Shown piece by piece: positions 1-15,586 of a stretch of 64,000 nt of DNA. The DNA is from Escherichia phage W70. Below the pieces are notes generated by a model. That model had not been told where the DNA came from. It worked only from the letters and a program-made list of their open reading frames with translations, and did not search any database. The stretch lies in the sequence record OP778610, one strand, 5' to 3'. Each line of letters begins with the position of its first letter. The first letter of the stretch is position 1. The translations under genes were made by a program, and so were the position numbers.

Positions 1-404
1 CGGCGAATCTCTTCTTTCATCACTTCCTGCATCGTTAATTTAAGGATTTCTTTGTTTAATTTTGGCTTAACTTCATGAAGCTTGTCAAGAAGTTTTTCCA
101 TTTCTTCTTTTACTTTTTCTTCCTCATTTTCTATTTCTAATTGGTCCATCGCATCTTTGCAAACACAGCAATGACCTATTACTCTTAAAATGTGGTTTTG
201 TATAGGTAATGCTTTTCTACCACAATAACCACAAAGAATAGAACCACCAGAGTTTCGGGCATCCACTGTCAATGTAGGTTTGGCCCCTTTTGCCTGAGAA
301 TGCCAAGTCTTTTTGCCTTGGTAATCATACATAAAGAATTCATAGGATCTCTCATCAACGTGATCTTCGAGCATATGTAAAGTTCGTGTATTGAAATGTT
401 TCAT
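1..404 (-). CDS. hypothetical Cys-rich protein (CxxC...HCCVC), 3' end beyond window edge
   Basis: ATG at 402-404 with SD GAGAGG upstream; frame stays open to position 1; N-term MKHFNTRTLHMLEDH, Cys cluster CGYCGRK..HCCVC then Lys/Glu-rich tail. Confidence 0.5.
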   Translation of the reverse strand, partial: MKHFNTRTLHMLEDHVDERSYEFFMYDYQGKKTWHSQAKGAKPTLTVDARNSGGSILCGYCGRKALPIQNHILRVIGHCCVCKDAMDQLEIENEEEKVKEEMEKLLDKLHEVKPKLNKEILKLTMQEVMKEEIR

Positions 405-441
405 CTTTAAACCTCTCGTCGTTTGTATGAGCTAACTATAC

Positions 442-470
442 GAGAACTTGAGAGGAAGATCAATACTTGA
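442..470. repeat. isolated copy of GAGAACTTGAGAGG motif plus ATACTTGA half-site in divergent promoter region
   Basis: gagaacttgagagg at 442-455 matches the 20-bp unit repeated at 9135-9302; lies between divergent genes 1-404(-) and 527(+). Confidence 0.5.
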
Positions 471-526
471 TTTGCATTTTATTTTCATTATACTGTGCAC
501 ATCTAAAACGAGAAGGAGTGTAATAA

Positions 527-1090
527 ATGAGTCAAGATAAAGAGTTAGCCATTGCAATATCGACAGCAGCTTCTGCACACGTTAACCAGGTAGATAAAGG
601 AGGGAATATCTACATCCTTCATCCTTTACAGGTGATGCAGACACTGCAACAAAAAGGAAGAGAGGATTTAATGGCAGCAGGTGTTTTGCACGACGTGATT
701 GAAGACACTAATCTCACTATGGTAGATCTCTTTAGAATGGGTATTTCAGAAAGAACTCTGGAGATTGTCGATGCAGTAACAAAGAAACGTAAGCAATCTT
801 CATCTGATTACCTAGAGGGGATTTTAGAGAGTGAGGGTGCTTGTCATGTTAAGCTTGCGGATCTTAAACACAACTTAGATATTCTGCGAACTTGTAGCAC
901 CACAGAAAAAGACTTGCAACGGGTCAGGAAGTATGTAACAATGCACTTGTTGATTACGGAGATGGTTGATTGGTATGAAAGTATCGGAAGGTATCTCGAT
1001 TATTGTGATTCTTTTGCCTATTCTAGCTATCTCGACGAACGTAAAGAATTTGTTCAGAAACTTATTAAAAAATGGAAGGAGTTTAAATGA
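527..1090 (+). CDS. (p)ppGpp hydrolase, RelA/SpoT-type HD domain (small alarmone hydrolase)
   Basis: HD signatures AHVNQVDKGGNIYILHPL and AAGVLHDVIEDT; SD AAGGAG 8 nt upstream of ATG; 187 aa. Confidence 0.75.
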   Translation: MSQDKELAIAISTAASAHVNQVDKGGNIYILHPLQVMQTLQQKGREDLMAAGVLHDVIEDTNLTMVDLFRMGISERTLEIVDAVTKKRKQSSSDYLEGILESEGACHVKLADLKHNLDILRTCSTTEKDLQRVRKYVTMHLLITEMVDWYESIGRYLDYCDSFAYSSYLDERKEFVQKLIKKWKEFK

Positions 1091-1620
1091 AAAAGGTATT
1101 GAGTATTGAGCCGTTCACAACAACATACTTTGACGATTTGGAACGTCATGGTGATTATGGGGTACAAGACGCTGATGGTTGGAAAGAATTCCCTGAAGAA
1201 ACAAAAGGTGACATTACAAAGCTCGGTTGTAAGATCAATGGTGAAGAACCGAAAGGTGTTTACACCATGTTTTCTTTCCTTGAAGCTATGAATCCAACAT
1301 ACAAGGGGGATAGACAATTCGGTTTTTCTTTTGCATCATTCCTTACTTGCAGTTGTGGTCACGGGGGTTGTGCAGGCTATCATGATAATGTGGTTATTCG
1401 ACGTAAAAAGAACACGGTGATGGTCGTAGGGAAAAAGGAAGATGGTTACAACGAAGGTGTTGTATTGACAGGGGAGTCTGTTGTATACTTCGATAAAGAG
1501 CAATGGGACAGCGTTCTGGACCACTACCTTAAACTCTTTAAAGAAAATCCAGATGGTGTTTTTGAAGATACAGGTTTTATGTTCACTGGTCGTTGGGGGA
1601 CTAAAAATTTTTCAAAATAA
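1087..1620 (+). CDS. hypothetical protein
   Basis: ATGA start/stop overlap with upstream gene; Cys cluster CSCGHGGC; no recognised domain. Confidence 0.55.
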   Translation: MKKVLSIEPFTTTYFDDLERHGDYGVQDADGWKEFPEETKGDITKLGCKINGEEPKGVYTMFSFLEAMNPTYKGDRQFGFSFASFLTCSCGHGGCAGYHDNVVIRRKKNTVMVVGKKEDGYNEGVVLTGESVVYFDKEQWDSVLDHYLKLFKENPDGVFEDTGFMFTGRWGTKNFSK

Positions 1621-1690
1621 CTTAAAAACTGGTTGACTTAAGAAATAGAAAAGATATACTTATCACATCAAAAACAAGAGGAGATATAAA

Positions 1691-2920
1691 ATGCAAGCAA
1701 CTTATCAACGTATGGACCAAACCATGTTCAAAAAACGTATCAGTATCCGTGATATGGAACCACTGATCCGTCTGGGCGCTTCCATCGGTAAGACCGTGTT
1801 CTTTTTTGGTGGTGCAGGTCTTGGTAAGTCTGAAAAAGTAAAACAGATCGCGGACTCTATGTTCCCACATCGTGTAGGCAATAACCTGTGTGATGTTCGT
1901 CTGTCTGATAAAGAGCCACAAGATATTGCAGGCATTCCGATTCCGATCTCTTATCCAGATCCAAAGACTGGTGAAGAAGTTACCCGTACTGTATATGCTG
2001 TTCCAAACTTCTGGCCTACCGATCCTGATTGGGAAGGTATCGTGTTCCTGGATGAACTGCCGAACGCACCATTGGGTACTCAGCACTCTGCATATCAGGT
2101 TATTCTTGATCACGTTGCAGGTGAGCATAAGTTCCCGAAAGGTACTGTGTTTGTAGGTGCGGGTAACCGTGATACTGATGGAGCAGGGACAACATCTATG
2201 CCTGGTCCACTGGTTAACCGTATGATCATCGCCGAGGTTGATTATAATCTGGATGTGTGGATCGAAGATTATGCGATTCCGTTCCGTCTGCATCCGAACA
2301 TTATTGGTTTCTTGAAGCAGTTTCCAGAGCATTTCTATACTGGTGACGTAGAAAACCGAAGCACTCCGGTTTATTCATCTCCTCGTCAATGGAAAACAGC
2401 ATCTGACATTCTGTATAAGTACGATGCTGGCGAGATTAATGAATTTATCGCAGAGGTTGCCCTGGCAGGTACAGTTGGTGAAGGCTTGGAAGTACAGATC
2501 CTTGCTTACCATTTACGTGCTAAAGAACTTCCTCCGATTGAAGATATCTTTAGTGGTGCAGTTAAAGAACATAAACTTGATCGCAGTAAGAACGACCTTG
2601 TTTACGTACTGGCACAAACTGGTCTGCGTCGTATGGAAGATGAAGTTATGGATAACGATATGACTGATGATAAGTTCCTTGAACGTGCAGGTAACTTCCT
2701 TACGTTCATGTACAATAACTATTATGCAAACAACAAGGATACGATGATTGCTTTGATCTTGGGCGTGTTCCGTGGTCCAAACGATAAGCCATCTATCCTG
2801 ACTGTTAACCCGAAACGTCAGAAAATGATTCCGCTCATGCGTAAAAGTTGCCCGACTGTTTCTGCCGCAGTTATGGAATACATGACTCGCTATGGTCAAC
2901 TGATTAAAGAATTCGAATAA
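1691..2920 (+). CDS. AAA+ ATPase, MoxR/CbbQ-like
   Basis: Walker A GGAGLGKSE, Walker B FLDELPNA, sensor GAGNRD; SD AAGAGGAG upstream. Confidence 0.6.
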   Translation: MQATYQRMDQTMFKKRISIRDMEPLIRLGASIGKTVFFFGGAGLGKSEKVKQIADSMFPHRVGNNLCDVRLSDKEPQDIAGIPIPISYPDPKTGEEVTRTVYAVPNFWPTDPDWEGIVFLDELPNAPLGTQHSAYQVILDHVAGEHKFPKGTVFVGAGNRDTDGAGTTSMPGPLVNRMIIAEVDYNLDVWIEDYAIPFRLHPNIIGFLKQFPEHFYTGDVENRSTPVYSSPRQWKTASDILYKYDAGEINEFIAEVALAGTVGEGLEVQILAYHLRAKELPPIEDIFSGAVKEHKLDRSKNDLVYVLAQTGLRRMEDEVMDNDMTDDKFLERAGNFLTFMYNNYYANNKDTMIALILGVFRGPNDKPSILTVNPKRQKMIPLMRKSCPTVSAAVMEYMTRYGQLIKEFE

Positions 2921-3000
2921 TCTCTTGACAACGAAAAACAGTTAACTTAATATAAGGGCATCTCGAAAGAGGTGTCCTTTTTTAATTTGGAGAAAATGAA

Positions 3001-4539
3001 ATGGCAAAACTTACGATTGAAGAAAGCAATATGATTGAAATGCAAGTCTCTGAAGCAGAGCGTATCATCGAGGCTGCTAGTCTACAACTGATGCGGTTTA
3101 AGCCCTTCTACGGGGTAATGCTTTCTTCTATGCCTGTTAAAAAGGCGACGGAGTGGTGTAGTACAATGGCGACTGATGGACGTAACCTGTATTACCATCC
3201 AGAGTTCGTTGCAGGTATGACAGAAGAACGTAAAAAATTGGTACTTGATCGACTTTCCAAAACTGAGAAAGATCCTAAAAAGCTGAAAGAGTCCACTGAG
3301 TTTATTAATGTCTTCTATCGTCGCAAGACTGCCCGTGAGCTTGCTCTTATTCTTGAGCACGAATGTGATCATGTGATCTCTGATCATGCCTCTCGTGGTA
3401 AAGGATTTAATCATGAACTTTACAACATTGCGGCTGACCATCGTATCAATACAACGGCTGTGCTTATTCACCAAAAAGGGGATGAGTTAGGTAAAGCATG
3501 GTTCCCTGCCGGAGAGAGAACAGTATTTGATAAGAATGCTGAGTTTGGATTTATGGCCTGGTCTTACTGTGATTTCCGATTCAAAGATATGTATACTGAG
3601 CAGATCTATGAAATCCTGAATAAAGAGCAAGATGATAAAGAAAAATCCAAAGGACAAGGTTCTGGTTCTGGAAGTGGAGAGGGTGATGGTGAAGAGGGTG
3701 ATCAAGGTCGTAAAGGTGTTGATCAGCACATGGACCAGAACGGCGATCCAGAAGATTCAGAAGGCGATAGTGTCGAAGATGCGTTAGGAATCGACCGTAA
3801 AGCGAAGCCTAAGCAAACAGCAGAGGAACGCCAGTATAACGATGGGGTTATGCGTCGAGCCATTGAGAATGCCGTACAGGCAGCAGGAAGCGGTGCGCCG
3901 GAAGATGCTCGTCGTTTTGTAGAAGCAGCAGGTAAACCAAAGATTAACTATCTTCGTTTGTTGCGTAAAACTATTGAACGTCTGTTTAAAGATGATGTAT
4001 CATATCGTCGTTTGTCACGCCGTAGTCACTCGTTAACTCGAACTCTTCGTAGTTCTGGTTACTTGTCTGGACGACAGACGATTGGTTTACCATCGAAGAA
4101 CAAACAGAAGACTATTCGTGCGGGTGTCTTCTTCGACGTATCGGGATCATTTAACGATGATCTATTGCGTCCAACAATGCGTGAGATTCGTGGATTATGT
4201 AATCTTTACGACGAATTTGAGGTCACGATGGCTTGCTGGTCAACAAAGGTTGGTAACATCGAGACGTATACGAAAAGAAACGTTGGTGAGATTGCTGACT
4301 ATAAGATCAAAACGACATTTGGTACGGATGTTTCTTGTGTGTTTGAAGCATTAGATGAAATGGAAGACCCTATGGATCAGATCATCATCTATACTGACGG
4401 TTACTTTGCTGATGTATCCCAAAAGAAAGATTGGGCCAAAAAGTATGGTAAGAATGTTCTTTGGATCATCCTGGGCCGTGGGTCTTCGTTCACCCCACCT
4501 TTCGGCAAGGCAATTGATTTTGACAAGTATCTTAAATAA
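3001..4539 (+). CDS. DUF2201-like protein: putative HExxH metallopeptidase-like N-domain plus VWA-like C-domain
   Basis: HExxH in LEHECDH; Gly/Ser/acidic low-complexity linker (aa ~215-250); C-terminal half VWA-like; directly follows AAA+ gene. Confidence 0.55.
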   Translation: MAKLTIEESNMIEMQVSEAERIIEAASLQLMRFKPFYGVMLSSMPVKKATEWCSTMATDGRNLYYHPEFVAGMTEERKKLVLDRLSKTEKDPKKLKESTEFINVFYRRKTARELALILEHECDHVISDHASRGKGFNHELYNIAADHRINTTAVLIHQKGDELGKAWFPAGERTVFDKNAEFGFMAWSYCDFRFKDMYTEQIYEILNKEQDDKEKSKGQGSGSGSGEGDGEEGDQGRKGVDQHMDQNGDPEDSEGDSVEDALGIDRKAKPKQTAEERQYNDGVMRRAIENAVQAAGSGAPEDARRFVEAAGKPKINYLRLLRKTIERLFKDDVSYRRLSRRSHSLTRTLRSSGYLSGRQTIGLPSKNKQKTIRAGVFFDVSGSFNDDLLRPTMREIRGLCNLYDEFEVTMACWSTKVGNIETYTKRNVGEIADYKIKTTFGTDVSCVFEALDEMEDPMDQIIIYTDGYFADVSQKKDWAKKYGKNVLWIILGRGSSFTPPFGKAIDFDKYLK

Positions 4540-4548
4540 GGAGGGTCT

Positions 4549-4920
4549 TTGAGCGAGTATACTTACAAGTTGTCAGTTGGTAGGCGTGGTGTGGTTATGA
4601 CTATCAACATGATTAATGAGAGTGCGGAGGCTGTGAAGTGGTGGGCCTCCACCTTTAATGGGAAAGGTTTTACTTTATCGCGTCATAAGATTGAATCAGG
4701 AAAGCCGATAGATCTTGTCAAGGAGGACACTTTCTTGTATCCTGATCGTATCAGTGATGAAGACATTGATTTCCTGTCTGCCACGGTTGGTAGTTTGTTG
4801 GATGAAGAGCCGGATATTATAAGGTTGCTCTCTTTGCTTACGGCAATGTGGTCAGCAGGTCATGACGAGGAAAGTATGCACACGATGGTAAGGAATACGT
4901 TGAGACGTTGGTCTAAGTAA
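4549..4920 (+). CDS. hypothetical protein
   Basis: TTG start 5 nt after strong SD AAGGAGGG; 123 aa. Confidence 0.5.
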   Translation: MSEYTYKLSVGRRGVVMTINMINESAEAVKWWASTFNGKGFTLSRHKIESGKPIDLVKEDTFLYPDRISDEDIDFLSATVGSLLDEEPDIIRLLSLLTAMWSAGHDEESMHTMVRNTLRRWSK

Positions 4921-5240
4921 CAACATTTCCTTTATGCCCGTTTAGGCATACAATACTATATTAGATGATAAACCCCTCAACCTGCTCGGTTGCTTCGACG
5001 GGGTTTATATATCTATTAAAAAATTAACCACACTCACATTCGTTCGGTACTTAATTTTTTAAGTCCCCACAAAATTGTGTTGACACCACAATAGAACACA
5101 TGTAGAGTTAACAACAGAAGGAAAGTTACTTGGATAAGTTTTACGTATACTGTCTAACATTGGGATTGATACTCTTGATCGTTGGATCAATAGGTAAAGT
5201 TTTACTCAATAGTTTTGGAATTTATTAAGAGGAGATCGTA

Positions 5241-5483
5241 ATGAGAGTACGTCAACATCGTGGTACACTGATTGAGAGTTTGAAGACTGTTAAACAGATC
5301 GATAGTACAAAACAGGCTCTTGTGGATCATATCAATAAAGAGTTAGGTAAACCGTTTAACTTCTCTGTTGATTCGATCAGTATTGTGGAAAAGGGAGTTG
5401 ATGAGCGTATCAACTGGAACAACCATCTGATCCTGATTGATGGTTTTGGTGTATTTGGTTATTGTGATCAACATCCTGTTTAA
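5241..5483 (+). CDS. hypothetical protein
   Basis: SD AAGAGGAG upstream of ATG; 80 aa. Confidence 0.5.
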   Translation: MRVRQHRGTLIESLKTVKQIDSTKQALVDHINKELGKPFNFSVDSISIVEKGVDERINWNNHLILIDGFGVFGYCDQHPV

Positions 5484-5492
5484 GAGGTGGTT

Positions 5493-5594
5493 ATGGGTAT
5501 TAAATGGTGGTTGTTTGTAGTTCCTGCAAATGATAATGCAGGTGGTGATGGTAAACGTGCAGTCGCACAAACCTATGTCTATGGTCGTCGTTGA
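5493..5594 (+). CDS. hypothetical small protein (33 aa)
   Basis: ATG preceded by SD AAGAGGTGG; MGIKWWLFVVPANDNAGGDGKRAVAQTYVYGRR; not in ORF track (<60 aa). Confidence 0.35.
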   Translation: MGIKWWLFVVPANDNAGGDGKRAVAQTYVYGRR

Positions 5595-5603
5595 GGAGTT
5601 ATT

Positions 5604-6011
5604 ATGGATGCTTTTTTGAGTATGGTGTTTGCACTGACAGTGGTTGATTGGGTATTTATCGGTATCTATTTGCTGTGTATTCCTTTTGTGGTCTGGTTCT
5701 ACATTGACCTTTTGGCAGGTACTGGCAAGGTAAGTGGGATGGACTACTTCATGTTTATTGTTGTGATCCTGATGGGGCCTTTAGCTTTGTTGTCTTTCCT
5801 TATTGCAAACATTGTGGTAAGAGGGGGCGCTATCAAACAAGCCATTCTTTTAAAGGTGAGTGGAACTGATATCGGTAAGAAGATCATTGTCTGGAACATT
5901 ACACGTAAGCTTAAGAAGACTGATACCAAATGGGTTAATCCTTTAGAGCGAGCCGTTCAGAAACGTCACAAAGTCTTAATAGGGAGAAAACATGGGAAAT
6001 GCAATCCGTAA
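5604..6011 (+). CDS. hypothetical membrane protein
   Basis: SD TGAGGAG upstream; multiple hydrophobic helices (VVDWVFIGIYLLCIPFVVWFYI, FMFIVVILMGPLALLSFLIANIVV). Confidence 0.55.
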   Translation: MDAFLSMVFALTVVDWVFIGIYLLCIPFVVWFYIDLLAGTGKVSGMDYFMFIVVILMGPLALLSFLIANIVVRGGAIKQAILLKVSGTDIGKKIIVWNITRKLKKTDTKWVNPLERAVQKRHKVLIGRKHGKCNP

Positions 6012-6156
6012 AATCAAGTGGAAGTTTTGGGAATACGCGCTGGTTGTTGCTGGATATCTTTTCGGATACGGTCATGAAGTGTACTATGGTGTGAAGCATA
6101 ATCGAAACATGGCGTACTTCGCGTGGAAGTTTCCAGAGCGTAAGGAAAAGAAATGA
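5992..6156 (+). CDS. hypothetical small protein (54 aa)
   Basis: ATG with SD AGGGAG; stop overlaps next ATG (ATGA); overlaps 3' end of 5604-6011 in another frame, so one of the two termini is uncertain. Confidence 0.3.
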   Translation: MGNAIRKIKWKFWEYALVVAGYLFGYGHEVYYGVKHNRNMAYFAWKFPERKEKK

Positions 6157-6674
6157 AAGTCACAGAAAGCTTAGTTAAAAAGGTTCGAATAGAAGAACTC
6201 CAGGAAGAAAGACTCGACCCTATCGAGGTTATCATTGAGAACTACGAGAATGGCAGAGGTAAGCTTATAGTCACCTCAAGTGGCAAGTCTTGGGTAGGCC
6301 AATGGAATGCAATGGGAGGTAGTGTAGAGTCCTTCATCCAACGTGTAGATAATGACTACCTTATCGGATGTATGGGTCGAGCGCCTAAATTTATTGAAGA
6401 TAAGGATGAAGATCCTGTTTTCATTAAGAAGATGATCTTGAAGTATCGTCGGAATGATTCGATAACCGAAGAAAAGGCGAGAAGGGCTTGGGATTATATA
6501 GATACATATTCCCCTGATCGTGATGATATCTTTTATTGGGTTCCTTTTGCGCTTCAACCCCTGAAGGAGTTGGAAGAGCCTTGGTATCTTGACTGGCCTA
6601 CAAAAGTCAATACGGAGTATGTACACCAAAGTAAGATCCTAGATATTGTTCGTAAAGCAATAAGGCCAAATTAA
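6153..6674 (+). CDS. hypothetical protein
   Basis: ORF-track frame, 173 aa; GC-rich hairpin follows at 6672-6702. Confidence 0.55.
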   Translation: MKVTESLVKKVRIEELQEERLDPIEVIIENYENGRGKLIVTSSGKSWVGQWNAMGGSVESFIQRVDNDYLIGCMGRAPKFIEDKDEDPVFIKKMILKYRRNDSITEEKARRAWDYIDTYSPDRDDIFYWVPFALQPLKELEEPWYLDWPTKVNTEYVHQSKILDIVRKAIRPN

Positions 6675-6745
6675 TAACGAGAAGGGGTTGACGAGAGTCG
6701 CCCCTTGAGTTAAACTTCAGTTATCAAAACAAAGAGGAGAAAGAA

Positions 6746-7369
6746 ATGGCTATATATGCAAAACTGAAAGAAAGTAAGAAAAGTTATTTTATTTCGATGG
6801 ACCCATCTAACCGACGTATGATTGAAAATCATGGTGATCGATTCATTGTTCGACCTTCTGAGAATAACGATTCTTACTTACGTCCGGTGGGTCCACGTAT
6901 TGAGGGTCAGTTCTTAACATCCCGAGATATCGAAGAGTATTTTACATTCTTTCCTGAATGGTCAGCAGAGTCAGCAGAATACATCGTTAACTTGGCGATC
7001 CCGCAGGGTCAAGTGTCTATTGATGATCAGTATCTGTTGGGTGATTTAACTGGGGACTATAGAATTAAAACAAGCCACCCGAATATGTGGCGACTGTATA
7101 ACAACTCTACTAACCCTGATGATTATGTCCTAATCAAGCAGAGTAATTTGGAGAAATATTTTACCTTGCAAGAAGACTCCTTAAAGAAAGCACTGAAGAA
7201 GTTTGACAATTACACCCCTGCACCTGTAGAAAAAGAACAGGAAGTTGTAGATACGGATGTTTTTGAAGTGAACATTAAGCGCACAGTCAGGGTTAAGGAT
7301 GCGGAAGTCACAGAGGACAATCTGGATCAATTCATTGCACAGCTTACTAAACTGGTTAAAGGAGAATAA
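6746..7369 (+). CDS. hypothetical protein
   Basis: SD AAGAGGAG upstream; 207 aa. Confidence 0.55.
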   Translation: MAIYAKLKESKKSYFISMDPSNRRMIENHGDRFIVRPSENNDSYLRPVGPRIEGQFLTSRDIEEYFTFFPEWSAESAEYIVNLAIPQGQVSIDDQYLLGDLTGDYRIKTSHPNMWRLYNNSTNPDDYVLIKQSNLEKYFTLQEDSLKKALKKFDNYTPAPVEKEQEVVDTDVFEVNIKRTVRVKDAEVTEDNLDQFIAQLTKLVKGE

Positions 7370-7372
7370 AAG

Positions 7373-7687
7373 ATGATTATCGATGAAAGAACGCAAGTAG
7401 TTATTGACAAGACTTTCAGTGTACGTAAAAGTATCATTGCAGACATTAGTCTTGAGCGTATCACCGAGGAGGGTATTGATACTTCTGTAAACTACCCATT
7501 GGTGGAAGAAGACTTCTTACGTAAAATTATGAAGCAAAGTTTTACCGATCATGTGCAGGTAGAAACTAACGAAGAGATGTGGTTAGTCTTTAAACTATCT
7601 GCCGATACTGATCACGAACAAGAATTCAATGCGGCATTGGCATGGATTCTTAAATACTGTAATGACAATGATCTGGAGGTGATGTAA
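7373..7687 (+). CDS. hypothetical protein
   Basis: SD AAAGGAG in end of upstream gene; 104 aa. Confidence 0.5.
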   Translation: MIIDERTQVVIDKTFSVRKSIIADISLERITEEGIDTSVNYPLVEEDFLRKIMKQSFTDHVQVETNEEMWLVFKLSADTDHEQEFNAALAWILKYCNDNDLEVM

Positions 7688-7914
7688 TGCACAAGCTTCC
7701 AAAGAACTTTCGATTCTATCGTGATCTGAAATTAAAGTCTGTACTGTTTGTCGAGAATTTAGAGTTAGAGGAGTTTTATGGTTTTGAATGGTACAAAGGG
7801 GATATGGGAGAGATGAACTTAGAGAATGTTCTCAAATTTTGGGGCAATGATGATGGGGAAGGATACAGCCCCACACCAAAACACGAGCTTTCCCTTGTTG
7901 AGATCAGACAGTAA
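7687..7914 (+). CDS. hypothetical protein
   Basis: ATGTAATG-type overlap with upstream gene; 75 aa; hairpin AGGGGCC-N6-GGCCCCT at 7918-7940. Confidence 0.5.
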   Translation: MHKLPKNFRFYRDLKLKSVLFVENLELEEFYGFEWYKGDMGEMNLENVLKFWGNDDGEGYSPTPKHELSLVEIRQ

Positions 7915-8019
7915 CAAAAGAAGGGGCCTAAACAGGCCCCTGTAAGCATAAACAAGCACAAGACGATAAATGACCTTACCAAAGATAAAAGGTCCTCACA
8001 AACGCATACAGGAGCTTAC

Positions 8020-8838
8020 ATGGCCTATCGTAAATTTGACCCACTAATCATTTATGAAGTTGTCCCAATGAGTGTCTCCAATCCTCATGGTTTGCAATCA
8101 CCTACTCCACTTGACCATAAGACAATGATCAGGAATGCAGAGTACACCTTAAGAGATCTTGAGAACGAAGAGATTGAAAGTGCTGTGCATGGATTGAAAG
8201 ACCTGATCCGTGAACTTGATACGGATGATTCTGTTCAAGAATATATTGAAAAGTCAGAGGCGCTAATCACGAAGTTTCATGAGTACCGCACTAAGGTATC
8301 GCGTATTCTTGATGAAGCTTTTGATCCTTCATCAAAAGACCCGATAAATGATGACAAGGCAATAACCTTACTCAGCCAAATAGCTGACGCTACTGACAGC
8401 ATGGACCCTGGTTTTGTAAGGGCTGATCATACCTGTGTAGATCAGTTTCCTTTAGCCTATCTTAAATCCAAAAAAGCATTCGGTAGTCTGGCTTTTGTCT
8501 GGGAGTATGAGAAAGATTCCCTTACTCGTTACATCAATCGGGTAGGTAAGAAAGATACTTCAGTTACGTTAAATATCTTTTGTGATGGTTCCTTGATGGT
8601 CCATAACAACTGGACAAAAGAGAGCATCCTCTTTGGTAAAGAAAGAGATCAGAAATTTAAACTAGTAAACTATATCCGTTTCGCAACAGAGGATAGTAAA
8701 ATGGGTAAGTCATTTAAAGAGGAGGACTTTAAAACTTTCTTTGAGGATTGGCTTTCCCCAACAGAAGAAGAGATCCAACTCTTCAAGGCTGTGAATGGGG
8801 ATGTTTCATTTGACCTGTACACACTCTTTAACGAGTGA
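8020..8838 (+). CDS. hypothetical protein
   Basis: SD-like ACAGGAG upstream; 272 aa; last gene of left plus-strand block. Confidence 0.55.
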   Translation: MAYRKFDPLIIYEVVPMSVSNPHGLQSPTPLDHKTMIRNAEYTLRDLENEEIESAVHGLKDLIRELDTDDSVQEYIEKSEALITKFHEYRTKVSRILDEAFDPSSKDPINDDKAITLLSQIADATDSMDPGFVRADHTCVDQFPLAYLKSKKAFGSLAFVWEYEKDSLTRYINRVGKKDTSVTLNIFCDGSLMVHNNWTKESILFGKERDQKFKLVNYIRFATEDSKMGKSFKEEDFKTFFEDWLSPTEEEIQLFKAVNGDVSFDLYTLFNE

Positions 8839-8955
8839 TATTTGTTTGCTAAAACAAATTCAGATTTCAGATCCAAAATCTATTTGAGATATTTCCCTGT
8901 GATATTTGTTTCATGGGGAATTTTCAGATTTCAATTTGAAATTCTATTTGAGATA
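8836..8955. repeat. tandem imperfect ~56-bp direct repeat, period 64 bp, 2 copies
   Basis: TGATATTTGTTT..CAGATTTCA..TCTATTTGAGATA at 8836-8891 and 8900-8955. Confidence 0.7.
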
Positions 8956-9134
8956 AATTTAAGACTCTTGCCACCGTGTCACATCCATACTGTTTCATTC
9001 CTGCATACCCCGCACCACTAGATCAACTAAGCTGATGCCTCGCTTACAGACACACCCTTCAGATTCAATACGTTACTGCTCCAGTATACATACGATACAA
9101 AGCAAACATACGACACTCATGACCAGAATAATTT

Positions 9135-9302
9135 GAGAACTTGAGAGGTTTTTCATTTTTGAGATCGTAACCTGAAAACTGTGCACGAGAACTTGAGAGG
9201 TTTTTCGATACAGAGATTAGGAACTTGAGAGGTTTTTCATTTTTAAGTTTGCATTTGAAATTGAGAACTTGAGCTACAGGCCAGATACTTGAGGGGTTTT
9301 TC
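9135..9302. repeat. iteron-like array: 5 copies of GAGAACTTGAGAGGTTTTTC-type 20-bp unit
   Basis: copies at 9135-9154, 9187-9206, 9220-9238, 9263-9280 (degenerate), 9287-9302; irregular 30-60 bp spacing. Confidence 0.7.
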
Positions 9303-9666
9303 AAATTTCAGTTTCATTTCAAAATTGGAAAATTTTTTATATCCACAAAAATATAGGGCTTGTCAAGGTCTTTGATAAGAAATTTTCAGGAGGTGAGAAT
9401 TATTCTCATTTGCAGAATAACGGGCAGGGGTGGTGATTGCTTCGTGAAACCGTCCTCATCACCATGAATATATAATAGCACCGTTTTTGATTAGAAAGCA
9501 ACAACATTTTAAAAATATTTTTCGGTAAATTTTGGCCGAGCCACCGGCGATCCACCTTACAACCTGGCGGCGATGCCTGGTATGTTAGCCCCGCCTTTAC
9601 GCCGTGGGGATGGCGATTGTTTTCCTATGTAAGCATTATGGCCCCCTGGCGGGGCCGTTGTCAAGA

Positions 9667-9933
9667 TTATTTTTTGTTTTCTTGCCAGGCCAGGACACCT
9701 AACCAAAAAATAGGATAACCGCGTTTATCTTTTGGTATGTTGCTTTCCCCGCCACCGCCTTGCATCCATTCTACGCCACTGTTAAACATTTCAAGCTGAT
9801 AAAGGTCGGTTATCTTTGTATCCTTAAGGTTAAGGATTGTTTCAACCTTTAAGCCTGTTGCACTCGCCACTTGGTGGACCGTTCCACCTTGCCATTTTAA
9901 AGCGTGCATGAGGTGTAGTGTAGTAGTTGTCAT
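9667..9933 (-). CDS. hypothetical protein (uncertain)
   Basis: 88-aa ORF inside otherwise non-coding region; weak SD AAGGG 11 nt upstream; hairpin GGCCCC-N5-GGGGCC just downstream (9640-9657). Confidence 0.3.
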   Translation of the reverse strand: MTTTTLHLMHALKWQGGTVHQVASATGLKVETILNLKDTKITDLYQLEMFNSGVEWMQGGGGESNIPKDKRGYPIFWLGVLAWQENKK

Positions 9934-10045
9934 GTTGTGTTGCCCTTTCTTTTGTTGTGCGCCCTGGTTGTCGCGGTAAAAAGACTATAAATGATCTTCC
10001 TTTATATAGCAAGGAAAAAGAAATTAAAAAAGATTAAAAATAATG

Positions 10046-10074
10046 TTGACGTAGTGAATCTGGTAGCGTAGTAT
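10046..10074 (+). promoter_or_regulatory. sigma70-like promoter (TTGACG-N17-TAGTAT)
   Basis: -35/-10 hexamers with 17-bp spacer upstream of first small-gene cluster. Confidence 0.45.
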
Positions 10075-10131
10075 TCATCTCATCGAACGGCGACATGCCA
10101 ACAAGTAAACAAATAAAAGGGCAACAACAAA

Positions 10132-10317
10132 ATGAATAAAAGAATTACAAACGTAAATCCTGGCGAACGTTTCCAACATGAGGGGCATTTGCACACTGTA
10201 GTAAGCAACAAAGAGCATACTGTAAGAGTAAATAGAAATATCTTGCAACTTCGCGATCGTTTTGGTATCGTACAGACTTACACTTTCGAAGCAAATAAAA
10301 CAGTTAAAACTTTCTGA
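10132..10317 (+). CDS. hypothetical small protein
   Basis: 61 aa; SD AAAAGGG upstream. Confidence 0.45.
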   Translation: MNKRITNVNPGERFQHEGHLHTVVSNKEHTVRVNRNILQLRDRFGIVQTYTFEANKTVKTF

Positions 10318-10328
10318 GGATTTTTAAA

Positions 10329-10664
10329 ATGGCACTAGTCACTAAGTATTTCATTGAAGGCCAGCAAGCGGCGCAACAAGGTTACAGCCGTGTTACTCGT
10401 TACAAGAAAGAAGAAAACAAGATTGAATTTTTCAAGGGTTACGATAGTGTAAACCGTGATGCAATGGTCCTACGCTTCGAATCCGATCCAGTGGGCAAGC
10501 CTGTTACCTCTTACCAGGCATCACCGCAGATTGTTTATGTTGGTACTGTTAAAGAATGTAACGACAAGTTAATCACTTTGAAGCAGGCCGATCGTGCGGG
10601 TTACTTTGTTGTTTACACTGCTGACGGTAAGCCTTACCAGTACGAAAGCAAATATTTTAAATAA
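10329..10664 (+). CDS. hypothetical protein
   Basis: 111 aa; SD GAGGA upstream. Confidence 0.5.
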   Translation: MALVTKYFIEGQQAAQQGYSRVTRYKKEENKIEFFKGYDSVNRDAMVLRFESDPVGKPVTSYQASPQIVYVGTVKECNDKLITLKQADRAGYFVVYTADGKPYQYESKYFK

Positions 10665-10670
10665 AAAGTA

Positions 10671-10727
10671 TTGACAGAAAGAAAGAAGTAAATTAAATTA
10701 TACCACGTAACGCCGCAATCGTGCGGC
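10671..10727 (+). promoter_or_regulatory. promoter cassette TTGACA-N17-TAAATT plus 5'-UTR hairpin GCCGCA-ATCG-TGCGGC
   Basis: consensus -35; hairpin between -10 and SD of 10746 gene. Confidence 0.5.
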
Positions 10728-10745
10728 AATAAAAACTGATAGGAA

Positions 10746-10967
10746 TTGAACAAAATGGCTAAAATCATCATTAAAAAATCCCGTGTATCTTCTGTTGCTC
10801 GCGTCGAAATGGTAAACACTATGCCAGGTTACCGGACTCGCGAGGAAGCCCGAAGCGTTGCAAAACAGATTAAAGCCCGTGGCTTAACTGTAAGTGCACC
10901 GACCAAAACACAAGAAGGATGGAAGGTATCTATTAAATCCGGTACACTGTCGATCAATAAACACTAA
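10746..10967 (+). CDS. hypothetical small basic protein
   Basis: 73 aa, Lys/Arg-rich. Confidence 0.5.
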   Translation: MNKMAKIIIKKSRVSSVARVEMVNTMPGYRTREEARSVAKQIKARGLTVSAPTKTQEGWKVSIKSGTLSINKH

Positions 10968-10983
10968 TAGCCAAAACATTAAC

Positions 10984-10999
10984 GGGGCAACTTTGCCCC
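10984..10999 (+). terminator. hairpin GGGGCAA-CT-TTGCCCC, weak terminator
   Basis: perfect GC stem after stop of 10746 gene; no clean U-tract. Confidence 0.3.
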
Positions 11000-11030
11000 T
11001 CACTAAATAACATTATCCAGGAGTATTAAC

Positions 11031-11189
11031 ATGACTAGCCAAAACACTAACATTGAAAAAATCAACATTACTAAAGAGCGTAAAGCATGGAATGAAACAT
11101 TAAATCTGAAAGGTAAGAAGCTGAATAAAACTAAACGCGATCGCAGTACAAAGCGGGCCTTTTGTGAATTTACAGCGGATCAAGAATGA
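11031..11189 (+). CDS. hypothetical small protein (52 aa)
   Basis: SD CAGGAG 7 nt upstream; ATGA overlap with next gene; not in ORF track. Confidence 0.45.
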   Translation: MTSQNTNIEKINITKERKAWNETLNLKGKKLNKTKRDRSTKRAFCEFTADQE

Positions 11190-11485
11190 TGATTAAAGTT
11201 ATTGCACTTACTGCCTTATTGTGTATACCATTTTTGGCGCACGGTACTAAGTTTTACGGTGCTAACTTGATAGATTGTAAAGCTCATATGCTGGACCATG
11301 AAACAGGCAACAAATTTGTTAAGCCTTTCCAGATCAATCCGGCGGTGTTTACTGACGGTGTTTTATATCAGGAAGGTAAAGCCAGTACGCTGATAATCCA
11401 TTACGATCCAGCGACAAAGAAAGGTAGTTTATCAATCCAGGTTGAAGGCGCGGAAGAGTTTTCAGGTAAAATAATCTGCAATTAA
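11186..11485 (+). CDS. hypothetical secreted protein (N-terminal signal peptide)
   Basis: MMIKVIALTALLCIPFLAHG hydrophobic leader; 99 aa. Confidence 0.5.
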   Translation: MMIKVIALTALLCIPFLAHGTKFYGANLIDCKAHMLDHETGNKFVKPFQINPAVFTDGVLYQEGKASTLIIHYDPATKKGSLSIQVEGAEEFSGKIICN

Positions 11486-11493
11486 TATGTTAA

Positions 11494-11522
11494 GGCCCGC
11501 CATTGTGCGGGCCTTTCTTTTA
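11494..11522 (+). terminator. rho-independent terminator
   Basis: GGCCCGC-CATTGT-GCGGGCC followed by TTTCTTTT. Confidence 0.65.
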
Positions 11523-11545
11523 TGAAAATAATTTTGAAAATGTTG

Positions 11546-11660
11546 TTGACAGCACCGATTAAAAGCGTATGATGTATTACATCAGGACGGGGAACCAAAC
11601 AAGTAACTCCCCGTTAAGTAGTCCAGGAGTAAGACATACGAAAACCTCCCCTGATAAAAT
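11546..11660 (+). promoter_or_regulatory. orphan promoter/UTR cassette without ORF (possible decayed gene or short transcript)
   Basis: TTGACA(11546)-N16-TATGAT, hairpin CGGGGA..TCCCCG, SD AGGAGTAAGAC followed by ATA instead of ATG (compare AGGAGTAAGAGAAATG at 16112-16130). Confidence 0.4.
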
Positions 11661-11663
11661 AGT

Positions 11664-11722
11664 TTGACAATAGTTTTTAGTACTGTATAATACATTACAT
11701 CAAGGGGAGAATAGTTCTCCCC
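11664..11722 (+). promoter_or_regulatory. promoter cassette TTGACA-N16-TATAAT plus hairpin GGGGAGAA-TAG-TTCTCCCC
   Basis: consensus hexamers; perfect 8-bp stem at 11704-11722 in 5' UTR. Confidence 0.55.
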
Positions 11723-11742
11723 ACATCAAAGGAATCAAAACA

Positions 11743-11970
11743 ATGGCTATCGTAATCACTCGCGTATCTGGTACAGTTGGCAATGCGGCAGTAGTAGCGG
11801 TTATCACTAATAAGAAAGGTGCGGAACTACATTTTGCAATGTATAACTGGTCAGTTGATGAGTTTGGTCAGTACGCTAGTGTAGAATACATTGAAACCTA
11901 TCAAGTGCCGTCGATTAGTTTAACTGATTTGGGCGTTGAGCGTATCCTTTGCCTGGATGAATTAAATTAA
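11743..11970 (+). CDS. hypothetical small protein
   Basis: 75 aa; SD AAAGGAA. Confidence 0.5.
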   Translation: MAIVITRVSGTVGNAAVVAVITNKKGAELHFAMYNWSVDEFGQYASVEYIETYQVPSISLTDLGVERILCLDELN

Positions 11971-11978
11971 AAAAGTAC

Positions 11979-12038
11979 TTGCAAAGTAAAACGAATAACG
12001 TATAATACATTACATCAAGGGGAGAAATGATTCTCCCC
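11979..12038 (+). promoter_or_regulatory. promoter cassette TTGCAA-N16-TATAAT plus hairpin GGGGAGAA-ATGA-TTCTCCCC
   Basis: near-duplicate of 11664 cassette. Confidence 0.5.
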
Positions 12039-12055
12039 ACTAAGAGGAAACTAAG

Positions 12056-12196
12056 ATGAAAACTTGCCAGTGTGGTAAAAAGTCTATTGCTGGTCTGCGT
12101 CGCGGTGTTGCTTTATGCCAGTATCATTACAATAGTCAAGTATGGGGTAAAACGTGGGCTGACCAGGTTGAAGCAGCAAAGAAAGCAAAAAAGTAA
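12056..12196 (+). CDS. hypothetical small Cys-containing protein (46 aa)
   Basis: SD AAGAGGAAA; MKTCQCGKKSIAGLRRGVALCQYHY...; not in ORF track. Confidence 0.45.
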   Translation: MKTCQCGKKSIAGLRRGVALCQYHYNSQVWGKTWADQVEAAKKAKK

Positions 12197-12254
12197 TTGA
12201 CAGCAGGAAGAAAAAGAGTAAACTGTATTACGTAGGGCGGCAATAGCGCCGCCA
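12197..12254 (+). promoter_or_regulatory. promoter cassette TTGACA-N16-TAAACT plus hairpin GGCGGC-N6-GCCGCC
   Basis: related to 16047 cassette (shared GAGTAAACTGTATTAC). Confidence 0.5.
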
Positions 12255-12274
12255 CATCAAAGAGAGAAATCAAA

Positions 12275-12493
12275 ATGGCTAATATCCGCACACTGTTAAA
12301 AAATGCAAAAGAAGTTTTATTTTCTGACGATGAATATTTTAATCGCAATATCAAAGGCGTTCGGAACATTAAGGATATAAAGGAATTATTTGGAATCAAA
12401 GGTAACGTATATCGTAAAGGATTGCACGGTAATAATTTTGAATATAAGTTGGCTGATAGTGATTATAATTTTACACTGACCATCATTAGTTGA
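12275..12493 (+). CDS. hypothetical small protein
   Basis: 72 aa; SD AGAGAGAAA. Confidence 0.5.
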   Translation: MANIRTLLKNAKEVLFSDDEYFNRNIKGVRNIKDIKELFGIKGNVYRKGLHGNNFEYKLADSDYNFTLTIIS

Positions 12494-12512
12494 AAGTTTT
12501 AATCTAGCGCTA

Positions 12513-12541
12513 TTGACTTAAGCCGATAGTGCTGGCATAAT
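12513..12541 (+). promoter_or_regulatory. promoter TTGACT-N17-CATAAT
   Basis: shares CATAATAACTTTTAT with 12806 promoter. Confidence 0.5.
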
Positions 12542-12573
12542 AACTTTTATCAAGAACATCAAAGGAAAGTAAA

Positions 12574-12786
12574 ATGGCTATCATTACTAAAATCAAAGTA
12601 AACAAAACACTGGTTAAGCTGGAAGAAGTGAAAGCAGGTTATAAAGTATCTTGGTGTGGCATGTATCGGATGTTCACAGATATAGACGATGCAATCAATT
12701 ACTACACTAACACGATTAAAAACTTTGTTCGTGCTGATGTGATTATTGCAGTGGAAGCACATAAAGCATCGAAAGAAAGTAAGTAA
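12574..12786 (+). CDS. hypothetical small protein
   Basis: 70 aa; SD AAAGGAAAG. Confidence 0.5.
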   Translation: MAIITKIKVNKTLVKLEEVKAGYKVSWCGMYRMFTDIDDAINYYTNTIKNFVRADVIIAVEAHKASKESK

Positions 12787-12805
12787 AATTATTACCACAG
12801 TACTA

Positions 12806-12834
12806 TTGACAACTACTGATAGTACTGACATAAT
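12806..12834 (+). promoter_or_regulatory. promoter TTGACA-N17-CATAAT
   Basis: duplicate of 12513 promoter. Confidence 0.5.
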
Positions 12835-12879
12835 AACTTTTATTAAGTACTACAAATCAAACAAAGAGAGAATACAATC

Positions 12880-13119
12880 ATGGCTAACAACAAAACTTTT
12901 AACGGTCACAAAAACAAAACTCATTGGAATGTTTCCTTGTGGATTAATAACGATGCATCACTGTATCGACTGGCTAATGATTTCATCGTCGCTAACACTA
13001 ATCGTAACGATGCGGCCCGTCATATGATGTTATTTTTAGAACAAACCGGACAACATAAAACACCGGACGGATTCAAGTATAGTACTACTGCAATCCGTGC
13101 CGCGATGGTTGGGATGTAA
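12880..13119 (+). CDS. hypothetical small protein
   Basis: 79 aa; SD AAAGAGAGAA. Confidence 0.5.
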   Translation: MANNKTFNGHKNKTHWNVSLWINNDASLYRLANDFIVANTNRNDAARHMMLFLEQTGQHKTPDGFKYSTTAIRAAMVGM

Positions 13120-13138
13120 TATTCAGTACTGAATCAAT

Positions 13139-13164
13139 GGCGGGGAATAGTTCCCGCCTTTACT
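13139..13164 (+). terminator. terminator-like hairpin
   Basis: GGCGGGGAA-TAG-TTCCCGCC followed by TTTACT. Confidence 0.45.
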
Positions 13165-13176
13165 GAGGATTATCTA

Positions 13177-13461
13177 ATGAGCAAAGTAATTAATAGTAAA
13201 GTACTGAGTAAAACATTAACACTCACTGAGTGCACCAATGGCTTTTGGCTATACGATTCTACCCGTGGCATGAATATAGCTATGCAAGCGAAATCAGAGG
13301 AGGCTGCATTTGTTGAAGCCCTGGGATACTATCAGAGACGTCTACAGGAAGTAGAAAACAATTACACCAGCCTTAAAGCGAAAGTAGACCATTTCATCGG
13401 GCAAGTGGTAGAAGATGATGAGGATGGTCACTATTGCGAACGCTGCGGATCTTACAGCTAA
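13177..13461 (+). CDS. hypothetical protein with C-terminal CxxC
   Basis: 94 aa; SD GAGGA upstream. Confidence 0.5.
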   Translation: MSKVINSKVLSKTLTLTECTNGFWLYDSTRGMNIAMQAKSEEAAFVEALGYYQRRLQEVENNYTSLKAKVDHFIGQVVEDDEDGHYCERCGSYS

Positions 13462-13469
13462 AAAAGTAG

Positions 13470-13528
13470 TTGACACAAAGAAACAAAACAAGTAAATTAA
13501 TCACATCAGGCGGGGAATGGACCCGCTA
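13470..13528 (+). promoter_or_regulatory. promoter cassette AAAAGTAGTTGACA-N17-TAAATT plus hairpin GCGGGGAATGGACCCGC
   Basis: near-identical (~50 bp) to cassette at 15587. Confidence 0.55.
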
Positions 13529-13548
13529 AAAGAGAAGAGAGAAATCAA

Positions 13549-13881
13549 ATGAGCTTTTTATCTATCGTACAGACTAACTTTGAAAATGATTTCATTGCTC
13601 AAGCTATCAACATCGACAAAGGTATCCCAAATATCAATTTTGGTTACAATAGCGGTGGTTATGAAAGATACCAGTATTTTGTAACTGACGATGGAAGTGT
13701 TTTAGGTATCAATACAGTGATGGCTAATATCCAAAACATTAATTTCAATGATCCCGATGAGCGCTCATTTTATATCGTCGGTATCCAGGTAAACTATGAA
13801 GATGATACGTTAACCGATGATTACACAGGTGAAGTATTAGAAAGTGTTTACGGTGATGAATCAGAAGAAGAAGAAGAATAA
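13549..13881 (+). CDS. hypothetical acidic protein
   Basis: 110 aa; poly-Glu C-terminus. Confidence 0.5.
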   Translation: MSFLSIVQTNFENDFIAQAINIDKGIPNINFGYNSGGYERYQYFVTDDGSVLGINTVMANIQNINFNDPDERSFYIVGIQVNYEDDTLTDDYTGEVLESVYGDESEEEEE

Positions 13882-13896
13882 GATTAGAAAAAGTAG

Positions 13897-13955
13897 TTGA
13901 CGGAAAGAGTATAAAGAAGTAAGATAATTAACGAATAGGGGGAAACATCTTCCCC
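13897..13955 (+). promoter_or_regulatory. promoter cassette AAAAGTAGTTGACG-N17-TAAGAT plus hairpin GGGGGAA-ACATC-TTCCCCC
   Basis: same upstream AAAAGTAG element as 13470 and 15587. Confidence 0.5.
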
Positions 13956-13980
13956 CATAAACAAAAAGAGAGATTGAAAA

Positions 13981-14163
13981 ATGACAGAACTGATTGCAAC
14001 TACAAAGATCGAAGGCGTTAACGATGTTACTTTGTCCTATGATCCTTCTACTCTGGTTTATGTTGTGAAATATGGCAGAATGATCGCAGAACTTGATTGC
14101 ATTGATGAGGCTTTCGAAAAATATTTCGAACTTATCAATATTGCTTATGATGACTACCGTTAA
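13981..14163 (+). CDS. hypothetical small protein
   Basis: 60 aa; SD AAAGAGAGA. Confidence 0.5.
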   Translation: MTELIATTKIEGVNDVTLSYDPSTLVYVVKYGRMIAELDCIDEAFEKYFELINIAYDDYR

Positions 14164-14193
14164 TATACAACGTAAAAATAGAAAGGTGATAAA

Positions 14194-14403
14194 ATGATCA
14201 ATGAAAAAACAATCAATGATGTTCGCGAGGAAGTTTTAGCCGTTGCTGTAGAATCGGGTGCACGTCAGGCATTTTGGAAAGCTACTGATCTTTACCCCGA
14301 GCAAGCCGAAAATATTCTTAATCAGGTCAGCGTTAAACTTGAACAAATAGGCAAACTGAAAACAAGTGAGCGCCTCGACCAAATCATTAAAGAAAGTTTT
14401 TGA
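14194..14403 (+). CDS. hypothetical small protein
   Basis: 69 aa; SD AAAGGTGA; no separate promoter, co-transcribed with 13981 gene. Confidence 0.5.
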   Translation: MINEKTINDVREEVLAVAVESGARQAFWKATDLYPEQAENILNQVSVKLEQIGKLKTSERLDQIIKESF

Positions 14404-14445
14404 TTGACTTTTAACATTGCCCCTATTAGTATTCAGGGGCAAGAT
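14404..14445 (+). promoter_or_regulatory. promoter TTGACT-N17-TAGTAT overlapping inverted repeat GCCCCT..AGGGGC
   Basis: -10 hexamer lies inside the inverted repeat at 14419-14440. Confidence 0.4.
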
Positions 14446-14467
14446 TAAAAGAAACAAGGACACAAAG

Positions 14468-14779: not shown

Positions 14780-14782
14780 CAT

Positions 14783-14920: not shown

Positions 14921-14929
14921 TATCAACCT

Positions 14930-14953: not shown

Positions 14954-14966
14954 ATGGAGAACAGAC

Positions 14967-15573: not shown

Positions 15574-15586
15574 TTTGAAAAAGTAG

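Follow-up and report, generated by a model that had tools for sequence, protein, structure and literature searches.

A predicted Aph-type alarmone hydrolase of Escherichia phage W70 with an adenosine-type specificity signature and a possible role in counter-defence

Close to the left end of the 64,000-nucleotide stretch of Escherichia phage W70 DNA analysed here (sequence record OP778610; the whole stretch is hereafter called the window) lies a gene for a 187-aa protein with the hydrolase motifs of the RelA/SpoT-homologue (RSH) superfamily. The locus raises the question of which substrate a phage would spend such an enzyme on, and for what benefit. An earlier note, made from the sequence alone, had called the product a SpoT-type (p)ppGpp hydrolase. 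The residues that govern substrate choice, the predicted fold and the relationships of the protein point elsewhere. Very probably, the gene encodes an active small alarmone hydrolase (SAH) of the Aph type, predicted to act on adenosine-based rather than guanosine-based substrates. With less assurance, we favour a role in which the enzyme would undo the damage inflicted by toxic small alarmone synthetases (toxSAS).

The reading frame is a coding gene under purifying selection, since its differences from the 95%-identical orthologue of Escherichia phage A73 are predominantly synonymous (24 synonymous against 9 non-synonymous codon differences) and concentrated at third positions (25 of 37 nucleotide differences). 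The general description given in the earlier note, a phage-encoded hydrolase of 187 aa with both HD hydrolase motifs and no synthetase domain, holds in every part. HPLQV occupies residues 32-36 and LHDVIEDT residues 54-61. The only Pfam match is HD_4 (PF13328), which represents the RelA/SpoT-type hydrolase domain and scores 32 bits where the gathering score is 27.2, and the NCBIfam model spoT_relA (TIGR00691) aligns over its positions 1-85 only, so that the protein has no synthetase or regulatory region. The resemblance goes far beyond chance: PHROG 990, annotated as a metal-dependent phosphohydrolase, is hit at 2e-53, and at E<=1e-3 the protein matches 14,760 cluster representatives from a 50%-non-redundant library. 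As to the origin of the DNA, positions 1-6000 of the window are 93-96% identical to five Escherichia myoviruses of ~142 kb (A73, A7_1, LTH01, A5-4 and UPEC06; 96% for A73), and the A73 and UPEC06 records are classified in Vequintavirinae.

The residues expected of a working hydrolase are all in place. H32, H55, D56, E59, D60, D112 and N116 are invariant in an alignment with SpoT, RelSeq and Aph1, as are K109 and Y29, which we also count among the catalytic residues. In RelSeq, the aligned positions are H53/H77/D78/D144 (for H32/H55/D56/D112), E81/D82 (for E59/D60) and N148 (for N116); published work on RelSeq places the Mn ligands and the catalytic diad among these residues, and we assign the same roles to their SAH counterparts. 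Judged from this alignment, the catalytic site of the SAH is intact.

It is the specificity residues that separate the SAH from SpoT. The Aph1 signature D24/R96/D116/R119/K133/Y134 aligns with D23/G98/D118/R121/K135/Y136, so five of the six residues are kept, both specificity residues included. In Aph1, D24 and R119 exclude ppGpp and the double substitution D24R+R119A is the change that admits it: the wild-type enzyme shows no detectable ppGpp hydrolysis, and the variant gains ~3 per minute, as against ~478 per minute for ppApp (PMC10083569). The same study found ppApp to be hydrolysed by Aph1 and by all 12 homologues tested. SpoT and RelSeq carry Arg at the site of D23 and R-E at the site of K-Y; they are without the two-residue insertion that makes N-x-D-x-x-R, and they carry an 11-residue internal helix segment that is missing in the SAH. 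Where SpoT (in 'TRSSG'), RelSeq (R44) and TtRel (R43) place the guanine-stacking Arg, the SAH has Asp.

These features are shared widely among the relatives of the protein. In the 71 homologues collected by a word-index search, D23 is present in 66, R121 in 67 and Y136 in all 71, and D23 and R121 occur together in 141 of the 150 nearest representatives of the 50%-non-redundant library. The SAH therefore nests inside the Aph-type clade and outside the Rel/SpoT and MESH1 clades. In addition, the search that served to define the Aph family (PMC10083569) took homology to the HD-less last 53 residues of Aph1 as its criterion, and this part of Aph1 (Y90-L141) aligns pairwise with the SAH at 47% identity over 34 residues (E 2e-8). 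We infer that the SAH prefers adenosine to guanosine in its substrate, and hydrolysis of ppGpp appears unlikely. The SpoT-type (p)ppGpp label of the earlier note is therefore not sustained: the Asp at the guanine-stacking position, the N-x-D-x-x-R insertion and the K-Y pair all speak against it, as does the fact that the closest solved relative, by sequence and by fold, is the (p)ppApp-specific Aph1.

By sequence, Aph1 of Bacteroides caccae (7SMG) is matched at E 3e-19, RelSeq at 1.8e-11 and MESH1 at ~1e-7. An AlphaFold2 model of the SAH, built on 71 sequences, has a mean predicted local distance difference test score (pLDDT) of 91 and a predicted template modelling score (pTM) of 0.88; it is all-helical, the HD fold and the C-terminal helices accounting for everything. 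When the model was compared with the PDB by Foldseek, the four 7SMG chains of Aph1 came out on top, with template modelling (TM) scores of 0.89-0.92 (normalised to Aph1) and a root-mean-square deviation of 1.3-1.6 Å over ~140 columns. The next matches, MESH1, SpoT, RelH and PaSAH, reached TM scores of 0.6-0.67 with larger deviations (for MESH1, 0.64-0.67 and 3.7 Å).

Comparison with named hydrolases places the SAH further. With gp220 of Salmonella phage PVP-SE1 it shares 48% identity across 154 residues (E 4e-42), and the two are orthologous and syntenic. Both proteins belong to Vequintavirinae phages, stand at the same position upstream of a MoxR ATPase, next to which the window encodes a DUF2201 protein, and bear the D-K-G-G, N-x-D-x-x-R and K-Y signature. 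PVP-SE1 gp220, the sole match in its genome, is 100% identical to SSE121 gp108, and it is by orthology to this labelled member that the name PbcSpo is applied to the SAH here. The PVP-SE1 protein differs in its length of 169 aa, with a shorter C-terminal tail in place of a full extra helix, and in having 11 further residues at its N-terminus; this extension overlaps a 342-aa gene upstream, which the window phage is without. Aph1 (PDB 7SMG; PMC10083569) has an identical HD/ED catalytic core in addition to the five signature residues; however, it is a compact eight-helix tetramer encoded beside its cognate toxin MuF-Apk2 in a temperate phage, whereas the SAH comes from a lytic myovirus, has Gly at the R96 site and ~45 extra C-terminal residues, and is not encoded beside a toxin. 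PaSpo of Salmonella phage SSU5 is likewise a stand-alone phage SAH; every toxSAS tested is neutralised by it, and it is reported to remove the tRNA modification. Nevertheless, it is only 29% identical (E 3e-8), has a Rel-like Arg at the D23 site and no N-x-D-x-x-R insertion, and keeps the Rel-type internal insertion. Because of this low identity, the Rel-like Arg and the missing insertion, its sequence assigns it to a different subfamily. The long RSHs (E. coli SpoT, RelSeq 1VJ7 and Thermus thermophilus Rel 6S2T) share the HD fold, the metal ligands, the ED diad and the HN motif at 24-25% identity; unlike them, the SAH has Asp for the guanine-contacting Arg and a 2-residue insertion after HN, and has no 11-residue internal segment and no synthetase or regulatory domains.

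The C-terminal part is where the SAH exceeds the Aph1 architecture. The last Aph1 helix is prolonged and a further helix (residues 162-186) is added, ~45 residues in all. This extension is covered by 2 of the 150 nearest representatives and is missing in Aph1 and most homologues; it is common to Cronobacter phage CR3, a metagenomic relative (P0002) and a 413-aa fusion protein of Pectobacterium phage phiTE. Ahmad et al. argued that an extra C-terminal helix would clash with the Aph1 tetramer (PMC10083569), and for this reason the SAH may have an oligomeric state different from that of Aph1. The idea that the extension is a basic tRNA-binding tail was considered and found unsupported, as the calculated pI is 5.2 and the CR3 equivalent is acidic and poorly conserved. 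In the phiTE fusion (BFVD K9L4V7; phrog_30929), ~230 N-terminal residues to which no function is assigned precede an SAH part that matches the whole SAH model, C-terminal extension included (TM 0.92, 42% identity).

What such an enzyme might do during infection is best approached from the published work on phage SAHs. The PVP-SE1 SAH ('PbcSpo', Jimmy et al. 2020) neutralises five of five toxSAS in E. coli, namely CapRel, PhRel, PhRel2, FaRel2 and FaRel (PMC7229694), a set that spans ppApp-making and tRNA-pyrophosphorylating toxins. Four of the five attach a pyrophosphate to the tRNA 3'-CCA end and make no alarmones; in vitro, the SAHs MESH1 and ATfaRel de-pyrophosphorylate such tRNA and restore its aminoacylation, and PaSpo, according to the authors, removes the tRNA pyrophosphate as well (bioRxiv 10.1101/2021.04.30.441581; PMC11245113). 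CapRelSJ46 pyrophosphorylates tRNA and has its gene in E. coli prophages; co-expression of a phage SAH makes it tolerable (PMC9712102). CapRel systems are present in prophages of E. coli and related hosts. Of the two roles that the earlier note had offered, disarming toxSAS is the best supported, since the PVP-SE1 orthologue did so in E. coli (PMC7229694), and the dismantling of host alarmone signalling is the less likely half.

We propose that the SAH is a single-domain, Mn2+ or Mg2+-dependent HD-fold hydrolase of the RSH superfamily, of the Aph1/PbcSpo type, presumably transcribed early by the host RNA polymerase as the leading gene of a rightward operon. It would strip the 3'-pyrophosphate from adenosine-based substrates of two classes: pApp, ppApp and pppApp released by toxic alarmone synthetases, and the pyrophosphorylated A76 of the tRNA 3'-CCA end produced by toxSAS abortive-infection effectors of the CapRel, FaRel2 and PhRel type. 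An adenine-selective pocket would fit both ppApp and the modified tRNA because both bear a 3'-pyrophosphate on adenosine. With the pyrophosphate gone, the ATP pool would recover and tRNAs could be charged again, and the infection could then be completed. Taken as a whole, this proposal of an early adenosine 3'-pyrophosphohydrolase that reverses toxSAS damage, with a counter-defence role in real infections, seems to us reasonably probable, if clearly less secure than the identification of the enzyme itself.

It is important to consider the observations that weigh against this proposal. The closest relative with enzymatic or genetic data, the PVP-SE1 SAH, is 48% identical and has been assayed in vivo only, and de-pyrophosphorylation of tRNA by the PbcSpo phage clade is something we infer. 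A gain in plating efficiency from a phage SAH on hosts that carry toxSAS is a prediction, and phage A73 was isolated on E. coli K-12, a host that may have no toxSAS. The R96 equivalent is G98, and Gly is also found in PVP-SE1, CR3 and ABPH49 and in the whole Vequintavirinae clade; Arg occupies this position in 40 of the 71 word-index homologues, and R96 is located away from the Aph1 active site (PMC10083569). The C-terminal helices depart from the compact eight-helix architecture of Aph1. Finally, some relatives do affect ppGpp: when Ahmad et al. assayed 12 Aph homologues, two of them hydrolysed ppGpp modestly (PMC10083569), and ATfaRel, of the same PbcSpo subfamily, lowered ppGpp in vivo.

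The last two facts lend themselves to a different explanation, in which the SAH is a (p)ppGpp hydrolase that collapses the host stringent response and keeps rRNA, tRNA and ribosome synthesis going during infection. Membership of the RelA/SpoT hydrolase superfamily and the GenBank naming of orthologues as guanosine-3',5'-bis(diphosphate) 3'-pyrophosphohydrolase also agree with it. We nevertheless hold it to be unlikely, given the Asp in place of the guanine-stacking Arg, the Aph-type insertion and K-Y pair, the inability of wild-type Aph1 to hydrolyse ppGpp detectably, and the clearly poorer fold matches to the Rel, SpoT and MESH1 structures. A further alternative is a function outside alarmones and defence, as a general phosphohydrolase of nucleotides or cofactors; it could be a MESH1-like NADPH phosphatase, for example, or an enzyme that removes 3'-phosphates of the pAp/PAPS type for the nucleotide metabolism of the phage. 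Human MESH1, which has been crystallised with NADPH and PAPS, is indeed one of the fold matches, and many genes of the phage serve nucleotide metabolism (ribonucleotide reductases and thymidylate synthase, for example). However, MESH1 is matched much more weakly than Aph1, the signature residues are those of tested ppApp hydrolases, and the PVP-SE1 orthologue has a demonstrated toxSAS-neutralising phenotype, which together make this function very improbable.

The context in which Aph1 was discovered, beside MuF-Apk2 in temperate phages, suggests yet another possibility, immunity against a (p)ppApp-synthetase toxin of the phage's own. Streptococcus phage IPP46 has this arrangement: it encodes a MuF protein, matched at its C-terminus by the SaSAS structure 8vx3 (1e-10), and after it an HD protein with 46% identity to the SAH over residues 9-136 (tblastn); the IPP46 toxin domain is unrecognised by Pfam and was recognised only via PDB 8vx3. 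The SAH, in contrast, has no adjoining MuF gene, and its surroundings in the genome, that of a large lytic myovirus, are of the early type. Moreover, a phmmer search of all six-frame open reading frames (ORFs) from the window and the complete A73 genome with the IPP46 toxin domain and the SpoT synthetase domain, a search with limited sensitivity to very divergent synthetases, returned a best E of 1.8. Because no RSH-synthetase-like ORF fell below this value in either sequence, self-immunity is set aside as scarcely credible.

Beyond the counter-defence proposal, a more speculative extension can be entertained, which we regard as possible but doubtful: the Aph-type SAHs of large lytic phages may be primarily tRNA acceptor-end repair enzymes rather than alarmone hydrolases. 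It would span Vequintavirinae, the Aeromonas T4-like phages and a Vibrio jumbo phage, and the 'adenine-specific' signature would have the recognition of A76 with its 3'-pyrophosphate as its purpose. The SAH and the phage's own CCA-adding enzyme would make up a two-enzyme kit, by which tRNA 3' ends stay chargeable when CapRel-type and CCA-damaging defences attack, and the rare C-terminal helices would adapt the enzyme to a macromolecular substrate or to another oligomeric state.

The window does contain a gene for a CCA-adding enzyme (tRNA nucleotidyltransferase) of 432 aa, and the phage thus encodes two enzymes potentially acting on tRNA 3' ends. In Vibrio phage 2.275.O (L012), a CCA enzyme is encoded two genes upstream of an Aph-type SAH, beside NUDIX and cNMP-binding proteins. 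As for tRNA genes near the SAH, none was found in the 64-kb window; A73 has five, in the part of its genome that lies outside the window.

SAH-related genes were found by tblastn in 328 phage records. The Vequintavirinae members examined, ABPH49 among them, carry the Aph-type signature, as do a Vibrio jumbo phage and Aeromonas T4-like phages; the Pseudomonas Pakpunavirus SPA01 does not. The substrate preference of such phage SAHs has been described as hard to predict (PMC12846349); for the Vequintavirinae SAH clade, the signature makes a prediction possible. Current annotation is inconsistent: proteins 95% identical to the SAH are labelled 'hypothetical protein' or 'GTP pyrophosphokinase' in GenBank, and the labels of the orthologues in UPEC06 (L002:3520-4083), pEp_SNUABM_01, Ro1, KP12 and ABPH49 vary among 'GTP pyrophosphokinase', 'putative (p)ppGpp synthase' and the guanosine-3',5'-bis(diphosphate) 3'-pyrophosphohydrolase already mentioned. 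As the proteins have no synthetase domain, the first two are wrong, and the third is doubtful because of the Aph-type signature; for the Vequintavirinae SAH clade, all three labels are probably incorrect.

Publications already exist on the Aph family and on phage SAHs and their activity against toxSAS, and phage SAHs have been proposed as a counter-defence against abortive infection by toxSAS of the CapRel, FaRel and PhRel type. What is new here is a refined substrate prediction and a minor architectural variant, the C-terminal extension. The SAHs of Vequintavirinae, including the experimentally used PVP-SE1 enzyme, bear a specificity signature of the (p)ppApp type rather than the ppGpp type, and this signature fits the adenosine 3'-pyrophosphate chemistry common to ppApp and pyrophosphorylated tRNA A76. 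The known picture is unchanged; the value of the locus lies in annotation and in an experimental handle, as the lineage supplies a phage infecting E. coli K-12 in which the counter-defence idea can be addressed genetically. The features of the locus are collected in Table 1.

Table 1. Position and basis of the features described at the SAH locus and elsewhere in the window
Feature	Position	Strand	Basis or remark
Divergent upstream gene, running off the window	3..404	-	Orthologue A73_54 is 162 aa
Mirror sigma-70-like promoter candidate	463-435	-	Consensus match only
Candidate sigma-70-like promoter, TTGATT-16-TATACT	467..494	+	Consensus match only, 9/12
Shine-Dalgarno AAGGAG	513..518	+	8 nt 5' of ATG, read from sequence
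SAH gene (Aph1/PbcSpo type), 187 aa	527..1090, stop codon included	+	ATG start, TGA stop
Codon for D23 (Aph1 D24; site of the guanine-stacking Arg of RelSeq R44/SpoT)	593..595	+	Alignments
Codon for H32, first metal-binding His of HPLQV (RelSeq H53)	620..622	+	Alignment
H55-D56-V-I-E59-D60, HD metal-binding motif and ED catalytic diad	689..706	+	Invariant alignment columns
D112 (fourth metal ligand) and N116 (conserved Asn), the latter in N116-L-D118-I-L-R121	860..889	+	Alignments
D118 and R121, Aph-type two-residue insertion (Aph1 D116, R119)	within 860..889	+	Alignments
K135-Y136 (Aph1 K133-Y134)	929..934	+	Alignments
C-terminal extension, residues 145-187 (end of helix 127-157 and helix 162-186)	959..1087	+	AlphaFold2 model
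177-aa protein (phrog_8242, 1.9e-56)	1087..1620	+	ATG overlaps SAH stop (ATGA)
MoxR-like ATPase (phrog_1297)	1691..2920	+	Downstream of SAH in five phage lineages
DUF2201_N metallopeptidase and VWA-like protein	3001..4539	+	Pfam
CCA-adding enzyme / tRNA nucleotidyltransferase, 432 aa	36063..37361	-	PolyA_pol head and HD domain

The SAH is the first gene rightward of a 120-bp divergent intergenic region (406-526), which holds both promoter candidates and the Shine-Dalgarno sequence, a strong one. The order of divergent region, SAH, zero to three small genes and ATPase recurs in UPEC06/A73, in CR3, in Salmonella phage SSE121, in Acinetobacter phage ABPH49 and in a metagenomic relative. The DUF2201/VWA protein was confirmed beside the ATPase by domain search in two of these settings, the window and the metagenomic relative; the PHROG label of this protein, 'HNH endonuclease' (phrog_1314), conflicts with Pfam. 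A PADLOC scan of the SAH and the four proteins downstream of it gave no match.

At a larger scale, the window is a mosaic in comparison with A73: positions 1-16375 share 93-95% identity with it and positions 18755-64000 share 99.9%, and between the two blocks the window lacks ~6.7 kb that in A73 (78694-85449) consist of small ORFs. This pattern of identity suggests that recent recombination replaced the early region containing the SAH.

Two neighbouring genes were considered as partners of the SAH and rejected. The 177-aa protein encoded directly downstream has an invariant C-S-C-G-x-x-G-C-A-G-Y motif; the word-index search yielded two homologues only, and its AlphaFold2 model was unusable (pLDDT 52.7). 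Genes of similar size lie in the same interval of CR3 and SSE121. As an obligatory partner it was dismissed, since the metagenomic relative (L009) does without it in the SAH-ATPase interval. The other candidate was the 342-aa 'thymidylate kinase' that precedes the SAH in PVP-SE1 and SSE121 (phrog_10920; L001:2976-4004) and overlaps the SAH start by 37 nt. Neither the window nor A73 has a homologue of it, and it is not similar to the gene upstream of the ABPH49 SAH, so that it was rejected as a conserved partner. It also has no Pfam match and no sequence support from the PDB, and the 'thymidylate kinase' annotation, on this showing, looks unsupported.

On the other side of the intergenic region, the divergent gene has no Pfam match, and its translation has cysteine pairs of the CxxC type. 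Lastly, a 38-bp stretch of the window (4929..4966) is repeated exactly, in inverted orientation, at A73 137329-137366, beyond the window, and a 54-bp stretch (22137..22190) matches A73 86559-86612, also inverted; both may be repeated regulatory elements.

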